Shown: positions 1,218-30,523, numbered from the stretch's first letter. The stretch: DNA of 55,876 nucleotides from an uncultured Mycobacterium sp. (GCA_964196535.1 CAXMUG010000083.1:1-55876); one strand, 5' to 3'. The notes: a model not told the origin generated them from the sequence alone. Program-made: numbers and translations.

Positions 1218-1258
1218 GCACAGTTTGCATTGCTGCAAATGAGCAACGCAAACTGTGC
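1218..1258 (+). other. Intercistronic stem-loop between the adaptor and permease genes (11-bp perfect stem GCACAGTTTGC / GCAAACTGTGC, 19-nt loop)
   Basis: I read the two arms directly as exact reverse complements at 1218-1228 and 1248-1258. They sit inside an unusually long 181-nt spacer between two genes that normally abut. Confidence 0.6.
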
Positions 1259-1293
1259 CGCAACGAAGTAGTGAGGCATAAGGCGAATTATTA

Positions 1294-4200
1294 ATGGGCA
1301 TTATTAATTTTTCAATCAAAAATCCTCTGGTTGTTAATTTATTTTTGATTCTTGTTGTAGTGCTAGGTGTCATTTCTTGGCGCAGTATGCCGCAAGAAAT
1401 GTTTCCAGTGGTCGAGATCGATAAGGTTCGTATCAGCACAGAATTTGAAGGCGCGCCACCTGAAGAAGTTGAGTCACAAGTTACTATTCCTATTGAAGAT
1501 GAGTTGGATTTACTCGCAGACATTGATGTCGTTACTTCAGAGAGTAATGAAGGAATTTCTAAAATTGTTATTGATCTTAAACCCGACACAAATGTTGATG
1601 AGTTTGTGCGTGACTTGCGTTCCACTGTAGATGCGATAACCGATCTTCCAGAAGAATCAGAAAGGCCTACTATCACGCGGTTAAAAACCCGCTTTCCTGT
1701 AATTAGTCTAAGTGTATATGGAGACGTATCAACGGGAACATTGGTGAAAACTGCTAAAGATATTAAAAGTCGATTGCAGCAATTAGACGGGGTTGCCAGT
1801 GTCAGTATTGCTGGCGAACGCGAATGGGAATTATGGGTGGTGGTGGATCCATTTGTTATGTCTGCACGTAATGTGTCATTAACCGCTATCACTTCTGCAT
1901 TACGTAATAACCTTAGAGACTTGCCAGGGGGGTCGCTTAAAGCATCAGAAGGGGATATTTTGCTGCGCGGCAAAGGTGCTGCACAAAATATTGAAGCTAC
2001 GAAAAAAATCGTTTTACGCAATGATCTTAATGGCGGACAGCTTGTATTGGGTGAGGTTGCAGATGTGCAGCTAAGGTTGGAGGAAACCAAAACCTTGGGG
2101 CGTTTCAATAATAAGCCTTCTGTGAATCTTACAATTACAAAAACTGCAAAGGCTTCAACAATCGAAGTATCCAAGTTAACTCGTGAACTTGCAGAACAAA
2201 TACAACAAGAGCTTCCTCCCGGCATCAAAGTTGGTTTATTTAGTGACTTATCTATTTATGTGAAGACTCGATTAGAGACCTTAAAGTCATCTGGGGCAGT
2301 GGGATTAGTACTGGTCTTGTTATCTTTGTATTTATTCTTAAATTTCAGAGTGGCTGCGATTACAGCGATGGGTATTCCGGTTTCATTCTTGGTGGCCGTG
2401 ACCATCATTTATTACCTTGGTTACACTATAAATATGGTGTCCATGTTTGCATTTTTAATTGCCTTGGGAATGATAGTAGATGATGCCATTATCGTTACCG
2501 AGAATACGTATCGTCATATGGAAGAAGGTATGGCCGCAGTACCGGCGGCAAAGATTGGCGCGAGCGAGGTATTCTGGCCGGTAATGGCTTCAACTTGCAC
2601 TACGGTTGCAGCTTTTTTGCCAATGTTTGGCGTGTCAGGAACCTTGGGTTTGTTTATACAGGTTATCCCGGTAGTGGTTACAGCATCCTTGGTTGGGTCA
2701 TTATTAGAGGCCTTTATCGTTTTGCCTTCTCATTCTGCAGAAATGCTGCGCTTAGCTAAACATAAAAAGCGCAGCAGAATTAATTGGCAAAAGTGGTTAG
2801 AAAAATATATTGCTGTGGTGAAATATGCCTTGCGAAATCGGTATTTCATTTCTGCGGTTACTATTGGCGTGTTAAGTGTTGTGTTGGCATTTGCGAAAAC
2901 GCATATGCCATACAATCAATTCGGTGATGTGGAGATTGGACAATTTCTGGTAAACGTGGAAGCCCCAAATACCTATAGCATTGAAGATACCACGGAGCTT
3001 GCAATTGAAATCGAACAGCGCATGGATAAAATATTTCAAGAAAATGAGCTGGATACACTATTAACTAATGTAGGTGTGACACTAATAGATTTTAATCGTT
3101 TAAAACTTGGCAGTAATTACATTCAATTTGTAGTTGATCTAAAAAAACCAAAACCAAAAGGTTTGGTTGAAAAATTTGTGAGTCCTTTAGTGAATATGCG
3201 CTTTACAGCGCAAGGCGTGCGAGATCGAAGCACTGAAGTTATATTAAGTGATGTTAGAGAAAGTGTTGCTTCGATACCTGGCATTCAGCGCTTTTCTATT
3301 TTGCGCCCACAAGGCGGTCCAGCAGGTTCAGATATAGAAGTAGGTATTGTTGGTAAAGAAACTGAAAAGTTACTTAGTTTATCGGGCGAAGTGGTTACAT
3401 TTTTACGCCGTGTGCCGGGAGTGCGGGATGTACGACAGGATTTAGAGCCCGGTAAACTAGAATATCAATACACTATAAATGCGCGCGGTAGAGAGTTAGG
3501 TCTTACGCAAACGCAAATAGCCGACGCAGTGCGTACAGGTTACTTGGGTTTGGAAGTTATGCAAGTAAATTGGAAATCAGACCGTTATCCGGTACGGGTA
3601 ATTTACCCAGAGTCGATTCGTAAAGATGGCGCGGGCTTAAGTCGATTGCCGATTACATTAGAAAGTGGCGGAACAGTTTATTTAGGTGAAATAGCCAATA
3701 TTGAATTAGGGCGTGGACTTGGTGCAGTTCAACGGCGAGACTCAAAACGTTTGTCGCTTATCACGGCAGAGGTGGATAAGGACGTCATAACACCATTAGA
3801 GGTTACCGAACTTTTGGGTCAGGAATTTAAATCAATAAGTGATGATCACTTTGGTTATTCACTATTATTTTTAGGTGAGAAGAAAGAAGCTCAAGATTCA
3901 TTCAATGATATCGGTAAAATGTTGGTGATTGCTTTAGCAGTGATATTTTTTATTTTAGCGGCATTATTCAAATCCTTGCTTGATCCATTTGTAATCATGT
4001 TTGCGATACCTTTCGCAATTGTAGGTGTGATTGTTGGGCATATGCTGTTCGGTTATAACTTGCAGTTTTTATCCATGATAGGGTTTCTTGCCTTGACGGG
4101 AATTGTAGTGAATGACTCGTTGATTCTGATTGATTTTGCTAAAAAGAAAATAGCGGATGGAGCAGATTGTTTTGATGCGTTAGTTGAAGCAGGGCGAGTA

Positions 4201-4696: not shown

Positions 4697-6058
4697 ATGT
4701 CATTTGAATCACTCGGTTTAAGAACCGAATTACTCCGTGCTGCGTCTGAAAAAGGCTACAGCACACCTACACCCATACAAACCCAGGCCATTCCTCTTAT
4801 ATTAGAAGGACGCGACCTAATGGGTGGCGCGCAAACCGGTACGGGGAAAACCGCTGGTTTTACTTTGCCGATGTTGCAAAGACTAATGGAGAGCAAGCCT
4901 CAAAAAGGTCGTCGCGCAATTCGTACTTTAGTGCTAACACCAACGCGCGAACTCGCTGCGCAAGTTACCGAAAGTGTACGGATGTATGGCAAATACTTGC
5001 CTCTTCGATCTACTGCAGTATTTGGCGGTGTAAGCATCAATCCACAAATTAAAAAACTGCGCGATGGCGTAGATGTTTTAGTTGCTACACCCGGCAGATT
5101 ATTAGATCACGTGGGTCAAAATACAATTGATCTTTCAAAAGTAGAAATACTAGTGCTTGATGAAGCGGATCGCATGTTGGATATGGGTTTCATTCATGAT
5201 ATCCGCAAAGTGCTAAAATTATTACCTAAGAAAAAACAAACCTTATTATTTTCTGCAACGTTCTCAAATGAGATTAAACGTTTGGCGGGAGATTTGCTTC
5301 ACGAGCCCGAGTTAATTGAAGTTGCACAGCGAAATGCTTCGGCCGAGCGCGTAACACAAGTAGTTCACCCGGTTGATGCTAAGAAAAAGCGTAAATTACT
5401 TTCGAAGTTAATTGGTGAGGGTAATTGGAAACAAGTTTTAGTATTTGCGCGAACTAAAAGAAATTGTGATCGTCTTGCACAAGCATTAATTAAAGATGGT
5501 TTGGACGCTGCAGCAATTCATGGTGGTAAAAGTCAGGGTGCTCGCACAAAAGCATTAGCACATTTCAAGTCTGGAAAAGTGAGAGTATTGGTGGCAACCG
5601 ATATCGCTGCACGTGGCTTGGATATTAGCCAACTCCCGCATGTAGTGAACTATGAGTTACCACATGTGCCTGAAGATTATGTGCATCGAATTGGTCGTAC
5701 CGGACGAGCTGGACATGAAGGTGAGGCGGTATCATTAGTATGCATAGATGAAGCAAAGTTACTAAAAGATATTGAACGTCTGATTAAGATCGAGATTCCA
5801 AAAGTAGTCATTGAAAACTTTGAGCCGGATCCAACCATCAAAGCGCAACCGATTACTATGGGTCGTCAACAGCAACCGCGTCGAGGTCAGGGCCAAGGCG
5901 CGAAAAAGCCGTCACAAAGAAGACAGTCTGGTTCTGGAAAGAAACAAGCCAATGGCAATAAAATGAAGCCATCACCTTCATCGTCTCCATATAAGGGTCG
6001 TTCGAACAATCAAGGACGAACAGGAAATCGTGCACGTCAACAAAGCTCACATGCTTGA
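4697..6058 (+). CDS. rhlE: DEAD-box ATP-dependent RNA helicase (RhlE-like) with a basic low-complexity C-terminal tail
   Basis: All helicase motifs are present: Q motif TPTPIQ, motif [16 protein letters not shown] and [11 protein letters not shown] prefer the ATG at 4697 (MSFESLGL) over the upstream ATG at 4667 because GGAGA lies about 13 nt upstream of it. Confidence 0.9.
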
Positions 6059-6382
6059 GTGATCAAATTCCTGAATGTCTGTATAAATGAGTAGATGTTC
6101 CTGATTAGCTAAATAATTGTATAGCTAGTCGGGAATCGCAGAGCCAAGTGAAAATAAGGCGTTATGTTTGGGCTCAAGCTTGTCAGCTTTGATAATGCTT
6201 ATTCGTATAATAATAAAAGGATTTATTAAATAATAATGTTATTTTCTGCTGAACCTGCTTTATTCATTCAAAGCGCGATGATTTTTTCCGTGATTATTGC
6301 TGCTTCAATTACGATGGTTAAAAAGCTCATAAGAGTTTTTGTTTAAATGCCTGCTTCGGGTCGTTAGCAGTCATTGCTTTGT

Positions 6383-6658
6383 TCAAAACTCTGAGACACA
6401 TTTATTAATGGTATCAATCATTGCTTCCGTCTGATTTGTAAATTCCTGCATATGTTTTCTCTCTAAATATTGCTTCCAGCTACCTTCACTTTCCCAGAGT
6501 TGGTCGAAAAAAAATACAAGACGATTATCAAGTGAAGGATGAAGATCACATTGAATACAACCATGTGCTTTTCTAGTGATGCCAATAATTGACCGAAGAG
6601 CTTTTTCCAATGCATCTTTATGTTGAGGCTTAGCTAAATATTTAATTATGATTTTCAT
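6383..6658 (-). CDS. Small ABM-fold protein (antibiotic-biosynthesis-monooxygenase / putative quinol monooxygenase-like)
   Basis: The 91-aa ORF has ABM-type length and pattern (MKIIIKYLAKPQHKDALEKAL...FFFDQLWESEGSWKQYLERKHMQEF). There is no Shine-Dalgarno sequence at normal spacing. The nearest AGGA is 15 nt upstream of the ATG. Confidence 0.65.
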   Translation of the reverse strand: MKIIIKYLAKPQHKDALEKALRSIIGITRKAHGCIQCDLHPSLDNRLVFFFDQLWESEGSWKQYLERKHMQEFTNQTEAMIDTINKCVSEF

Positions 6659-6672
6659 GTATGTGTAAGGTT

Positions 6673-6820
6673 ATCCTGAATATCTGCTTTGGGTCGATTG
6701 AAATTTGCTCCTCGGCAACTGCTCCTGCCTCCATGCAGTCGTGTAATTTCTGCACTTCCACCATCCATGGTGGTCGTAATTGGACATTCTTGGTTCATTA
6801 AAAGTTACTAATTCTAATCC
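6673..6820 (-). ncRNA. Candidate Csr/Rsm-family GGA-repeat RNA, or a CsrA-controlled leader of the ABM gene (locus A)
   Basis: By my count the minus strand carries 7 GGA in about 148 nt. Two of them sit in hairpin loops: CCACCAUGGAUGGUGG (6773..6758) and CUGCAUGGAGGCAG (6738..6725). The module is related to the one at 29085-29345. Confidence 0.4.
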
Positions 6821-6849
6821 AAAAAAAACGCCGGATAAAATCCGGCGTT
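6821..6849 (-). terminator. Rho-independent terminator of the pyrophosphatase gene
   Basis: The minus-strand RNA reads AACGCCGGA-UUUUA-UCCGGCGUU followed by a run of 8 U. It lies 24 nt after the stop codon. Confidence 0.85.
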
Positions 6850-6872
6850 TAAGTGAACCAAAGAAATATAAA

Positions 6873-8879
6873 TTAAAGTAACGGTGCAATCACTAAGCTC
6901 ACAATCGCCATTACGTTAATCAAAATATTCATCGATGGGACAGAGGTATCTTTGAACGGATCTCCTACAGTGTCACCCACGACTACTGCAGTATGTGTAT
7001 CTGAACCTTTCCCGCCCAGATTACCTTTTTCAACATACTTTTTAGCGTTGTCCCATGCGCCACCAGCATTGGCCATCATTAGTGCCATCAATACACAAAC
7101 GAGTAAAGCGCCACCTAGCATTCCGCCTAGGGTTTCAGCACCAAAACCAAAACCGACCACTACCGGTGCAACTACGGCTAATATTCCCGGTGGGATCATG
7201 CGCTTTAACGCTGCTGTGGTTGCTATGTCTACACAACGAACCGTATCCGGTTTTGCGGTGCCTTCTAATAGGCCTGGAATTTCTTTGAATTGACGACGAA
7301 TCTCTTTAATCATGTCGAAGGCTGCTTCACCTACTGCCGTCATGGTCATGGAGGCCACAATAAATGGGAAGACACCGCCAATGAATAGACCGATTAAAAC
7401 TTTTGGATTGCTTAAATCAAGAATAATCGTGCCACTACCGTGAGCACTTACCTCGGCAAGGAAAGCGGTAATAATTGCTAGTGCAGCAAGTGCTGCAGCA
7501 CCAATTGCGAAGCCTTTACCAATAGCAGCAGTGGTGTTGCCCACTTCATCAAGTTCGTCGGTAATTTTGCGAACGTCTTCACCGAGCTTGGCCATTTCTG
7601 CAATACCACCTGCGTTATCCGCTACTGGTCCGTAAGCATCAATTGCCATGGTGATACCAACCGTTGCAAGCATGCCTACTGCGGCAATACCTACACCATA
7701 TAGATCAGCAAATTGGTTAGCGAAGTAAATTATCGCAGCAATGGATAACACTGGAACAACTACAGATTGCATGCCGATAGCTAAACCAGAAATCATTACT
7801 GTTGCAGGGCCGGTTTCACCACTTTTGGCAATTTTTCTTACTGGTGCGCCGCCGGTGTAATACTCGGTCACCAGTCCAATAACGATTCCACCTACTGCGC
7901 CCGCTAGTACTGCAATCCATACGCCATTATCAACACCCAGTGCTTTTATGGTGAAGTATGCAGCAATGATGAAAATCACTGCTGCTGAGAAGGTGCCCAG
8001 ACGTAATGCGGTGGCGGGTGCTTTAGCCGCAAATATTTTAACGATGATGATGCCAAGAATTGAACAAAGCAGGCCAACCGAGGCTAAGCCTAATGGTAAG
8101 AACATTAATGTTTGTTTTGCACCTAGATGTTCAATGACGGCGGGTCCTAGTGTTGCTGCAATGGCGATGGTGGCAATAATAGAACCGCAATACGATTCAA
8201 AAATATCTGAACCCATACCGGCGACGTCGCCTACGTTGTCTCCAACATTATCGGCAATCACACCTGGATTACGTGGGTCGTCTTCTGGGATACCGGCTTC
8301 GATTTTTCCTACTAAGTCAGCACCGACGTCAGCACTCTTGGTGAAGATACCGCCGCCAACGCGCGAGAATAAGGCTACTGTAGATGCGCCCATACCAAAG
8401 CCATGAATAACATTGGCAGTAGCAGGATCACGCCCATACATTAAATAGAGTGCACCTAATCCTAATAAGCCCATCGCCGCAACGGTTAGGCCCATGATTG
8501 AGCCACCAAAGAAAGCCACGTTTAATGCAGCACCTGCGCCTTTTTCGCTCGCTGCTGTCGTGGTGCGAATATTAGCTCGTGTCGCAGTATGCATGCCGAT
8601 GAAGCCGGCAGCAGAGGAGCACAAGGCACCAATAATGAAGGCTATGGCAGTTCTAGAGCCTAGGTCTGAGATCCAGATTGCTGCAACCACAAAGGCTGAA
8701 AAGATAAATAAGATAGTGTATTCACGGCGTATAAAGGTCATTGCGCCTTTATGAATTTCTTCGCCAATTTCAACGACTTTGCCGCTGCCAGGTGAGTAAC
8801 TCATTACAATTCGATAGAGGATAAAGGCTACGATGAGGCCTACTCCTCCAAGAATCACAGGTAGCTGGTCGATGTTCAT
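6873..8879 (-). CDS. hppA: Membrane-integral pyrophosphatase (K+-dependent subfamily; gate-residue pattern suggests Na+ translocation)
   Basis: The 668-aa polytopic ORF contains the mPPase motifs [53 protein letters not shown] and DTVGDPFKD. Confidence 0.95.
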
Positions 8880-29025: not shown

Positions 29026-29084
29026 TTATCAAATGGCCGTTATTGGTCGAGAGCGGATATTAAGTTTAAGAGTCTAATTAGTTG

Positions 29085-29345
29085 CATCATCCCTGATGTG
29101 CCTCATATTCGCATATCCCTATGCACTCTAATTGGTTGATAGTAGACATTAGGGAAATAAAAGATTTAATCTGATGCAACATTCTTGTTGTAACTCAGAC
29201 TCGCACGGTCGCTCCCGACTCACTAGAAATTGCATCCACCATCCATGACGGTCGTCCTGTCTCCTGCGACACTTGTGCGCCCTTGTCAACAGCTCCTGCG
29301 TTGCTCTACCACCTACATCCATGTAGTCGCGCCCATCGTTCATGT
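29085..29345 (-). ncRNA. Candidate Csr/Rsm-family GGA-repeat RNA (locus B), immediately 3' of argE
   Basis: By my count the minus strand carries 9 GGA in about 260 nt. Four sit in hairpin loops: CUACAUGGAUGUAG (29326..29313), CCGUCAUGGAUGGUGG (29251..29236), GCAUAGGGAUAUGC (29124..29111) and CAUCAGGGAUGAUG (29098..29085). Confidence 0.45.
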
Positions 29346-29347
29346 TT

Positions 29348-30523
29348 TCACTTTACGCAAACCTCGTGAATAACGTTTTGCAGTAAATCTATTGTTGGCT
29401 TGATCGAATCCAATGATAAGAATTCATTTTGTTGATGGGCTTGGTCTATTGAGCCAGGCCCAAGTACAACGGTTTCCATGCCCATTGCATTAAAGTAAGG
29501 GCCTTCGGTTCCGAAAGCAACGGTTGTGGGTTTCTTATTGCTCAATTGTTTGGTGAGTTGAATAATCTTTGAGTTTTCGTCTGTCTCAAAAGCAGGCACA
29601 CCATCAAATAAAGCTTCAAATTCAACTCTTAAACCTAGTGGTTCAGTTATTTTTGTAACTCGCTCATAAAGTTCTTCTCTAAGAGTATCAATTTGCATAC
29701 CAGGCAAAGGGCGCAGATCGATATGTAATTCGCAATCCCCGCAAATTCTATTGGGGTTGTCGCCACCATGAATGTGTCCAAGGTTTAATGTGGGAATCGG
29801 TACAACAAAATCATGATTGATGTATTTATTGGCTAGTTCTTGTTTGAATTGTTCAAGTTCGTTGAGTACAACGCGCATGCCTTCCAATGCATTGTTGCCT
29901 AAGCTGGGGTCACTAGAGTGCCCGGCTTGACCATGAATTTTGATGGCTTCCATCATTACACCTTTGTGTTGGTGTATGGGGGTTAAGTCGGTTGGTTCTC
30001 CAATGATGCAATACTTGCCAAGCTTTTGACCTTTAGTCTCCAATGTTTGGGCTAAAGTTTTTGCGCCTTGCATAGTAGATTCTTCATCCGCTGTGGCAAT
30101 GATGGTCAGGCGTTGCTTTAAATCTTCATTGGTAAATTCTTTTGCTGCTTCGATAGCGATGGCCAAGAAAGACTTCATGTCAGCCGTGCCAAGTCCAAAT
30201 ATTTTTTCGTCTATTTGCGTGGCCTTGTATGGATCGGTATTCCAGCCTGTTTGGTCAAAGTTTACGGTGTCGGTATGGCCGGATAACACTAAGCCATCAT
30301 CGCCTTTACCTATGCTGGCAATTAAATTTACTTTAGGATTGTTAGAATTTGGCGAGTCAGAATTAGCAACAATTTCAGTTTGGAAGCCTAGGTCATTTAG
30401 CCAATTGGCTAGACAGTTAATGACAGGCTGATTACTAGTATCAATTTCAGCTTGGGTGCTGCTGACTGAGGGAAGGGCAATTAACTGCTCGATCATCTCC
30501 AGCAGTTTGGGTGTAGCCTTCAT
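29348..30523 (-). CDS. argE: Acetylornithine deacetylase (M20 peptidase family)
   Basis: The 391-aa ORF has M20 metal-binding motifs (LSGHTDTV, ATADEES, GEPT). It begins 12 nt downstream of mtdA. Confidence 0.88.
   Translation of the reverse strand: MKATPKLLEMIEQLIALPSVSSTQAEIDTSNQPVINCLANWLNDLGFQTEIVANSDSPNSNNPKVNLIASIGKGDDGLVLSGHTDTVNFDQTGWNTDPYKATQIDEKIFGLGTADMKSFLAIAIEAAKEFTNEDLKQRLTIIATADEESTMQGAKTLAQTLETKGQKLGKYCIIGEPTDLTPIHQHKGVMMEAIKIHGQAGHSSDPSLGNNALEGMRVVLNELEQFKQELANKYINHDFVVPIPTLNLGHIHGGDNPNRICGDCELHIDLRPLPGMQIDTLREELYERVTKITEPLGLRVEFEALFDGVPAFETDENSKIIQLTKQLSNKKPTTVAFGTEGPYFNAMGMETVVLGPGSIDQAHQQNEFLSLDSIKPTIDLLQNVIHEVCVK

Follow-up and report, generated by a model that had tools for sequence, protein, structure and literature searches.

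A dispersed, possibly mobile GGA-hairpin repeat, probably a CsrA ligand, upstream of an ABM-domain gene

Covariance-model searches and alignments identify the GGA-rich region at positions 6673-6820 (locus A) of a 55,876-nt stretch of DNA (hereafter the window) as a copy of a dispersed repeat family; the copy occupies 6781..6693 on the minus strand, and the family has a repeat-like genomic distribution. With moderate confidence we interpret locus A as a dispersed, possibly mobile and probably CsrA-binding module similar to TwoAYGGAY, which is most likely transcribed together with the adjacent ABM-domain gene. An earlier sequence-only reading, which proposed either a small RNA paralogous to a second GGA-rich region (locus B) or a CsrA-regulated leader, appears from these comparisons to have been partly right. 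The usual picture of Csr/Rsm sponges is one of a small number of dedicated sRNA genes; locus A points instead to a dispersed, structurally constrained GGA-hairpin repeat for which there is no Rfam model, and it advises caution in that a GGA-dense intergenic region need not be an RsmY/Z-type gene.

Gene setting and anatomy of the copy in the window

The order of features on the minus strand is hppA (8879..6873), its intrinsic terminator (6850..6826; an 11-bp stem and a U-run), which forms the upstream boundary of the region, a 160-nt spacer, and the ABM gene (6383..6658; 91 aa). The start of the latter at the ATG at 6658 is upheld by its homologues, all of which are 91 aa long and match with full coverage. 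It has no Shine-Dalgarno sequence (SD) at normal spacing, and the setting first described for the module, between the PPase terminator and an SD-less gene, was correct. GGA triplets start at 6820, 6766, 6759, 6732, 6725, 6711, and 6676 on the minus strand of 6673-6820, while the plus strand has one. This recount agrees with the seven GGA in about 148 nt that had been reported. Segments of 148 nt with at least seven GGA make up 0.11% of the minus strand of the 56-kb window, and those with seven all fall within locus A or 29173-29362, so that the density is shared with locus B alone; no 148-nt segment of the plus strand, over the whole window, holds seven. Two hairpins with GGA in their loops, X (6773..6758) and Y (6738..6725), lie where they had been placed, and the GGA-hairpin observation at 6673-6820 is confirmed.

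The whole copy (6693..6781, minus strand, delimited by a covariance model termed R1) consists of hairpin X and a helix, H2, with a 33-nt nested insert. X has the sequence CCACCA-UGGA-UGGUGG (6758..6773), its first two pairs being contributed by the CC of ACGACC (6772..6777), the left copy of a flanking direct repeat; its loop region CAUGGAUG fits CANGGANG, the consensus of Csr/Rsm sites which the GGA loops of locus A match. The 5' arm of H2, GCAGAAAUU (6745..6753), is followed by CGAC (6741..6738) and hairpin Y, CUGC-AUGGAG-GCAG (6725..6738), whose stem (helix 3 of the family alignment) shows compensatory changes in three of its six pairs. A further hairpin, H, is represented by the remnant GGCAGGAGCAGUUGCC (6714..6729), alignment A3 showing that its 5' arm was lost in a 19-nt deletion between two GCAGGAG repeats. 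The conserved GGA segment GAGGAGCA (6706..6713) stands directly before the 3' arm of H2, AAUUUCAAU (6697..6705), and H2 itself keeps six Watson-Crick pairs and one G-U pair out of nine, the two mismatches and the wobble being at the stem base. Beyond the right copy of the flanking repeat, CGACC (6692..6696), which is the sole copy at empty sites (see below), lies AGCAGAUAUUC (6678..6688), the right arm of a carrier hairpin termed T that is kept with the ABM gene in relatives. The 5' arm of this carrier's basal stem, GAAUGUC (6783..6789), pairs with 6684..6678 in MFE folds, and alignment A4 shows its homology to the left arm of T; what the folds display as a 7-bp closing stem, GAAUGUC/GAUAUUC, is a remnant of the T stem. 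Six minus-strand GGA are found from 6766 to 6676, in contexts that include the X loop region, the Y loop AUGGAG, GCAGGAGC, and the segment before the H2 3' arm; five of them belong to the module, two in the loops of X and Y and three outside intact stems. Judged against the family alignments, the window copy is a partly decayed member of the repeat family.

Folded as a single sequence, locus A does not stand out above shuffled controls (z of -0.75 and -1.5), and the ENA record of an identical contig (L081) calls a 47-aa ORF at 6798..6655. Both observations would suit an explanation by chance GGA richness, a 3' extension of hppA, or a small ORF, which we regard as highly improbable: chance is excluded by the family conservation and covariation described below, a strong terminator separates hppA from the module, and in L091, a relative with both hppA and the ABM gene, a bidirectional terminator is all that lies there. 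The 47-aa ORF across the module (6655-6798, minus strand) is probably spurious, and it was rejected because its frame is shifted by an indel of 19 nt among related copies.

A repeat family with conserved structure

Metagenome contigs were scanned for the core of X together with the sequence on its 5' side, ACGACCNNCATGGATGGTGGA, in which 19 bases are specified, and at least 120 metagenome stretches match it. Locus A had been presented as one of two paralogues, the other being locus B; that pairing gives way to a family whose core matches at least 120 metagenome stretches and whose copies number roughly in the tens in each genome. Among the matches listed, the conserved unit runs from ACGACC through hairpin X and AAGU into hairpin H2, and the H2 stem has at least eight of its nine pairs in 111 of the 116 copies with enough downstream sequence. 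The 9-bp stem of H2 varies from copy to copy (GCAGAUAUU/AAUAUCUGY, GCCGGUUUU/AAAACCGGU, GCGGAAAAC/GUUUUCCGC, and others) and its loop, GCAGGAGCA, is almost invariant; the H2 loop sequence GCAGGAGC shows no or hardly any variation on this variable stem. Many copies carry two extra hairpins nested side by side within H2, namely Y (consensus UUACAUGGAUGUAA) and H (consensus GGCAAUGCAGGAGCAAUUGCC), with the loops AUGGAU and CAGGAG, respectively, in the family; in the window the Y loop is AUGGAG and H is truncated.

Covariation was assessed in two alignments. Alignment A2 comprises 32 distinct simple X-H2 units, of whose cells 96.3% are paired as compared with 28-53% in slid controls, a percentage inflated because units were chosen at 7/9 or better arm complementarity; the double-sided changes, found in 8 of the 11 H2 pairs, are unaffected by this preselection, and the covariation score of A2 was equalled in 0 of 500 shuffles. 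Alignment A3 represents the four-helix form; compensatory changes occur in 10 of its 31 pairs, and again none of 500 shuffles reached the observed value. The alignments establish a conserved secondary structure with near-invariant GGA loops across the family.

The strand on which this structure operates had been argued from two changes between the X hairpins of loci A and B, A-U to G-U and C-G to U-G, which keep pairing in the minus-strand RNA. The changes are as stated and the family backs the first of them, although two sequences alone are weak ground for the argument. At the level of the family, core position 7 has A in 70 of the matches listed and G in the other 50, and in both states it can pair with U on the GGA strand only. 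G-U cells outnumber A-C cells by 26 to 7 in A2 and by 16 to 10 in A3, and the proposal of a structured, strand-biased module with GGA in its loops is borne out by the strong covariation; taken together, the family moderately supports an RNA-strand argument.

Model R1, built from unrelated metagenome units and run on the window, recovered locus A at 43.8 bits (E 5e-12), the X unit of locus B at 20.8 bits (E 9e-5), and the Y+H unit of locus B at 13.9 bits (E 0.014); the window held no further match at E <0.1, weaker ones beginning at E 0.12. The identical contig L081 (2878-2966) scored 48 bits (E 1e-12). These tests were needed because plain BLAST of A against B is at chance level, returning only the 13-mer CATGGATGGTGGA at E 0.2-0.6. 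The Smith-Waterman score of A against B is 32 (null 16.3 +/- 2.6), equalled by one of 300 shuffles, and CAGGAGCWGTTG is present at loci A and B only. The sequence kinship with locus B that had been noted is accordingly real but short.

Conserved loops and G-T wobbles would also be compatible with a selfish DNA repeat of the REP, BIME, REPIN or MITE kind, recognised as single-stranded DNA by a transposase and devoid of RNA function. We consider a repeat of this type fairly unlikely. All four hairpin types show GGA in the loop while their stems are free to vary, which is the pattern to be expected of a multivalent CsrA ligand and goes beyond what a single transposase site would need; also against it, the 19-base core is identical in contigs ranging from 37 to 61% GC (among the matches listed) and has no match in IMG/VR viral contigs. 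The distribution of copies, which speaks for such a repeat, is taken up below.

Filled and empty sites, dispersal, and locus B

Homologues of the ABM gene lie in a different gene context in each relative, and the module is absent upstream of ABM in all eight relatives examined. The orthologous regions went against the expectation of a GGA module conserved with the gene, since relatives with a 90-91% identical ABM protein have none at this site. In L222/L223 (ABM 91% identical) and L220 (90%) the position of the module is taken by an intact T hairpin of about 30 nt, with the consensus AAUGNCCGCU-(A/U)ACGACCCAA-AGCGGACAUU and the loop ACGACCC, followed by a conserved leader ending in UCAGGAUAACCUUAAAUAUCA-AUG. 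About 80 nt sit in the loop of this hairpin in the window, between ACGACC (6777..6772) and CGACC (6696..6692). Contig L114 is likewise a filled site, having the same upstream sequence as the window and a different downstream gene. Comparison of these contigs shows a presence/absence polymorphism at the ABM-upstream site, and the absence of the module from the same spot in close relatives makes a dispersed repeat likelier than a conventional small-RNA gene. Synteny from the hppA side covered 80 loci of the genome collection, none of which holds the module, but at 77% identity or less these are too distant.

The T hairpin also occurs alone. A solo copy, AAUGACUGCU-AACGACCCGA-AGCAGGCAUU, a REP-like empty form, is located downstream of ABM (6346..6375, minus strand); it is the only solo T in the window, and there are five T hairpins in the 4-kb contig L181 and four in L220. 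As a side observation, ABM is bracketed by T hairpins like a small cassette, both in the window (6346-6375, minus strand) and in L220 (2451-2480 and 2784-2813), and by comparison with L091 it is inverted between hppA and an AcrB-type pump gene. In the 437-kb contig L099 an ABM homologue lies about 340 nt downstream of a c-di-GMP-I riboswitch (RF01051; 2573-2660, plus strand; 81.6 bits), and three GGA-hairpin modules are found within 2 kb of the same locus.

How filled sites arise may not involve a transposase. The arms of H2, GCAGAUAUU and AAUAUCUGC, correspond to the arms of T, AAUAUCUGCU and AGCAGAUAUU, in swapped order, and the repeat that flanks locus A is an imperfect one of 15-17 nt (AATGTCCAATTACGACC / AAATTTCAAT-CGACC) which lies partly inside the unit. 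Tandem duplication or recombination of a T-type unit could on this basis generate filled sites without a transposase, and empty sites could have been produced by deletion between the repeats. The case for a clean transposase target-site duplication at locus A is weakened by the same two features.

No terminator was found between the module and the ABM ATG, because of which the module most likely forms part of the ABM 5' leader. That a CsrA-responsive leader evolved in cis for ABM would fit the co-orientation of module and gene across this terminator-free gap, the lack of a normally spaced SD, the conserved CAGGAU at -15, and the co-oriented downstream gene in the nearest assessable subfamily copies (the window, L114, L144, and L181). 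It is nevertheless quite improbable: besides being missing in the eight ABM relatives, the module is found ahead of unrelated genes, and of 51 copies across the family just 17 have a downstream gene in the same orientation. From its presence at unrelated genes and its absence in ABM relatives it would follow that any leader role was acquired by insertion and not by dedicated design, and as a consequence of insertion a leader function of the locus A copy is possible. The last GGA, within UUCAGGAUAA, does lie 15 nt from the ATG as had been claimed (CAGGAU, 6673..6678); since it is conserved with ABM in relatives that have no module, it belongs to the gene's own leader.

The dispersed-module reading that we favour can be stated as follows. 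An element made up of X and then of H2 enclosing Y and H would have become lodged in the loop of a REP-like T carrier upstream of ABM. Once transcribed, its hairpins may bind CsrA/RsmA dimers, by analogy with Rsm/CsrB RNAs and with the proposed TwoAYGGAY hairpins; from within the ABM leader the module could titrate CsrA, and together with the conserved GGA at -15 of the gene it could place translation of ABM under CsrA control. The family would spread by being copied, with CGACC either targeted or duplicated in the process. CsrA control may be gained by inserting a ready-made module, and sites that are filled in one close relative and empty in another offer a handle on whether the spread of TwoAYGGAY-type elements is tied to regulation.

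Copies are numerous and scattered. Several seed contigs have additional copies elsewhere (for example three loci in the 7.3-kb contig L111), and nhmmer detected five further clusters in about 540 kb of flanking sequence, which suggests that the copy number is roughly tens per genome. Crude ORF calls placed 51 copies, of which 15 lie between convergent genes, 4 between divergent genes, and 13 and 19 in tandem settings in co-oriented and anti-oriented position, respectively; this gene-context distribution is REP-like and shows no orientation preference. The genes neighbouring the module differ among the window, L114, L144, L181, and L220. Around the copies of two groups lie inverted repeats of 25-30 bp, each group having its own. 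In four marine sediment contigs (L133, L171, L119, and L148) forward X-H2 units alternate with reverse GGA hairpins in tandem units of 117-149 nt, so that one strand bears both GGA and UCC loops; these arrays often adjoin the terminator of a convergent gene. Individual copies decay, as indicated by one in L220 (1621-1745, plus strand), an A-type copy directly past the lptG stop codon in which the X loop UGGA has become UGUA; the degraded state of the window copy and the loss of this GGA raise the possibility that individual copies are neutral. The core motif was absent from 248 kb of other Gammaproteobacteria. The missing orientation bias, the alternating arrays, the inverted repeats, and the decayed copies are all features that a DNA repeat without RNA function would display, as are the doubling of CGACC(GU) at two filled sites, the frequency of solo T in relatives, and a conserved 5' CGAC that recalls the GTAG of REPs.

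A more ambitious form of the favoured reading, which we put forward as speculative and rather doubtful, is that of a self-propagating cassette of CsrA-binding RNA which copies itself into CGACC sites of REP-like loops and so delivers high-affinity CsrA sites to the 5' and 3' UTRs of arbitrary genes. Its target would be ABM at locus A, and at locus B a sponge RNA already present downstream of argE. Were this true, the family would amount to a mobile element with post-transcriptional regulation as its cargo, and the mobility of the repeat would be tied to how the Csr regulon evolves.

Locus B differs from locus A in being syntenic. The gene order PEP carboxylase, Mpt_N protein, and ArgE is kept in relatives whose ArgE is 95, 92, 87, and 82% identical, and in all four a GGA-rich stretch begins 3-5 nt past the stop codon of argE and has a T-type hairpin at its end. 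The corresponding stretch of the window covers 29026-29347 on the minus strand, its hairpins being gained and lost by lineage. Its backbone is conserved, and three parts are specific to the window. One is the Y+H unit, CGAC-UACAUGGAUGUA ... CAACGCAGGAGCUGUUG (29282..29334, minus strand), which R1 detects and which orthologues lack. The second is the X unit (29229..29259, minus strand; hairpin 29251..29236), also detected by R1 and bracketed by two perfect copies of CGACCGU (29254..29248 and 29211..29205); L225 and L227 have just one such copy there. The third is a two-hairpin module, GCAUAGGGAUAUGC-GAAUAUGAG-CAUCAGGGAUGAUG (29085..29125, minus strand), which is also present in L099 and L181; this arrangement, two hairpins joined by GAAUAUGAG, has AUGGAU/AGGGAU loops and compensatory stem changes (L099 3729-3767, plus strand, and 5210-5256, minus strand; L181), and by eye it comes closest here to a minimal TwoAYGGAY layout. 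Locus B looks like a syntenic GGA-rich RNA, a candidate Csr-type RNA derived from the argE 3'UTR, that may have acquired modules, while locus A is by the same contig comparisons a non-syntenic copy. Growth of sponge RNAs like locus B may proceed by such acquisition.

Comparison with known systems

With CsrB, CsrC, and RsmX/Y/Z locus A has in common many GGA in short hairpin loops and linkers, and we take the hairpins of the module to be close counterparts of CsrB units such as ACACCAGGAUGGUGU. Locus B resembles these sponges further in behaving like a GGA-rich RNA that is syntenic and has more or fewer hairpins from one relative to another. An independent, trans-acting sponge sRNA gene of the RsmY/Z or CsrB type, with its own promoter and paralogous to locus B, would account for the highest GGA density in the window, for the likeness to the CAGGAUG hairpins of CsrB, and for the synteny of locus B downstream of argE (ArgE 82-95% identical); in L103 and L114, moreover, a promoter-like TTGGAA-N17-TAATAT/CAAAAT lies 7 nt before ACGACC. 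For locus A we judge it improbable. The window copy is decayed and its promoter-like TTGGAT / TTTAAT is wrongly spaced at just 14 nt. Locus A, unlike the sponges (CsrB RF00018, CsrC RF00084, RsmZ RF00166, RsmY RF00195, and RsmX), has no covariance-model match, GacA/UvrY box, terminator of its own before the ABM ATG, or synteny, and its site is empty in the closest relatives. Sponge genes typically number 1-5 copies, far below the tens of copies per genome, decayed ones included, that we estimate for the family. The GacA box TGTAAGN6CTTACA was not enriched (18 matches against 30 expected), its sole match in the region lying downstream of the module on the plus strand (6664-6681) with three mismatches. 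Searches by tblastn did not find csrA, whether in the window or in the fetched loci, and csrA and gacA queries gave only weak response-regulator matches. Searches with Rfam 15 matched no family to loci A and B, Csr/Rsm and TwoAYGGAY included, either at gathering score or at E<=10, and none to full-length family copies at E<=5. The window as a whole (1-55876) has no Rfam family at gathering score, tRNA included.

The comparison with REP, BIME, and REPIN sequences concerns mainly the carrier. T is a short, extragenic, imperfect palindrome present in many copies, and convergent and tandem intergenic sites are favoured; the tetranucleotide CGAC, found before X, Y, and the T loop, stands where REPs have a 5' GTAG. 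Clusters in alternating orientation and filled and empty sites with flanking direct repeats are shared with REPs and MITEs, and the 25-30-bp inverted repeats around groups 1 and 2 and the CGACC/CGACCGU direct repeats at two filled sites may be counterparts of the terminal inverted repeats and target-site duplication of MITEs, but the repeat at locus A is imperfect and belongs to the unit itself. Here, in contrast to typical REPs, it is the loops that are conserved and the stems that vary, and, unlike in REP/BIME/REPIN sequences and MITEs, the flanking repeats are imperfect and partly inside the unit.

A further likeness is to TwoAYGGAY (RF01731), whose AYGGAY loops are proposed CsrA sites (PMC4333381). 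In Pseudomonadota this RNA has been described as high-copy, repeat-flanked, REP-associated, "mobile-element-like", and a possible multivalent Csr/Rsm sponge, and its extended forms occur as clustered doublets or arrays with copy-number dynamics like those of a mobile element (bioRxiv 10.64898/2026.09.22.753630, a September 2026 preprint). As a positive control, RF01731 finds a TwoAYGGAY in contig L130 at 57.5 bits (gathering threshold 43); the contig also has an X-H2 copy, 620 nt away from this canonical element (1247-1367, plus strand). The present family differs from TwoAYGGAY in its hosts, which are uncultured, mainly marine Gammaproteobacteria, in its much shorter stems, in the position of X outside the stem H2 that encloses Y and H, in a second loop type, GCAGGAGC, that is not AYGGAY, and in a carrier that is a hairpin with a CGACC loop. 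Like TwoAYGGAY, it presents AYGGAY loops (AUGGAU in X and in the family form of Y), its hairpins may be regarded as emerging from a basal stem, it is multi-copy, clustered in doublets or arrays, flanked by repeats or REPs, and mobile-element-like in its copy-number dynamics, and it is a proposed ligand of Csr/Rsm proteins.
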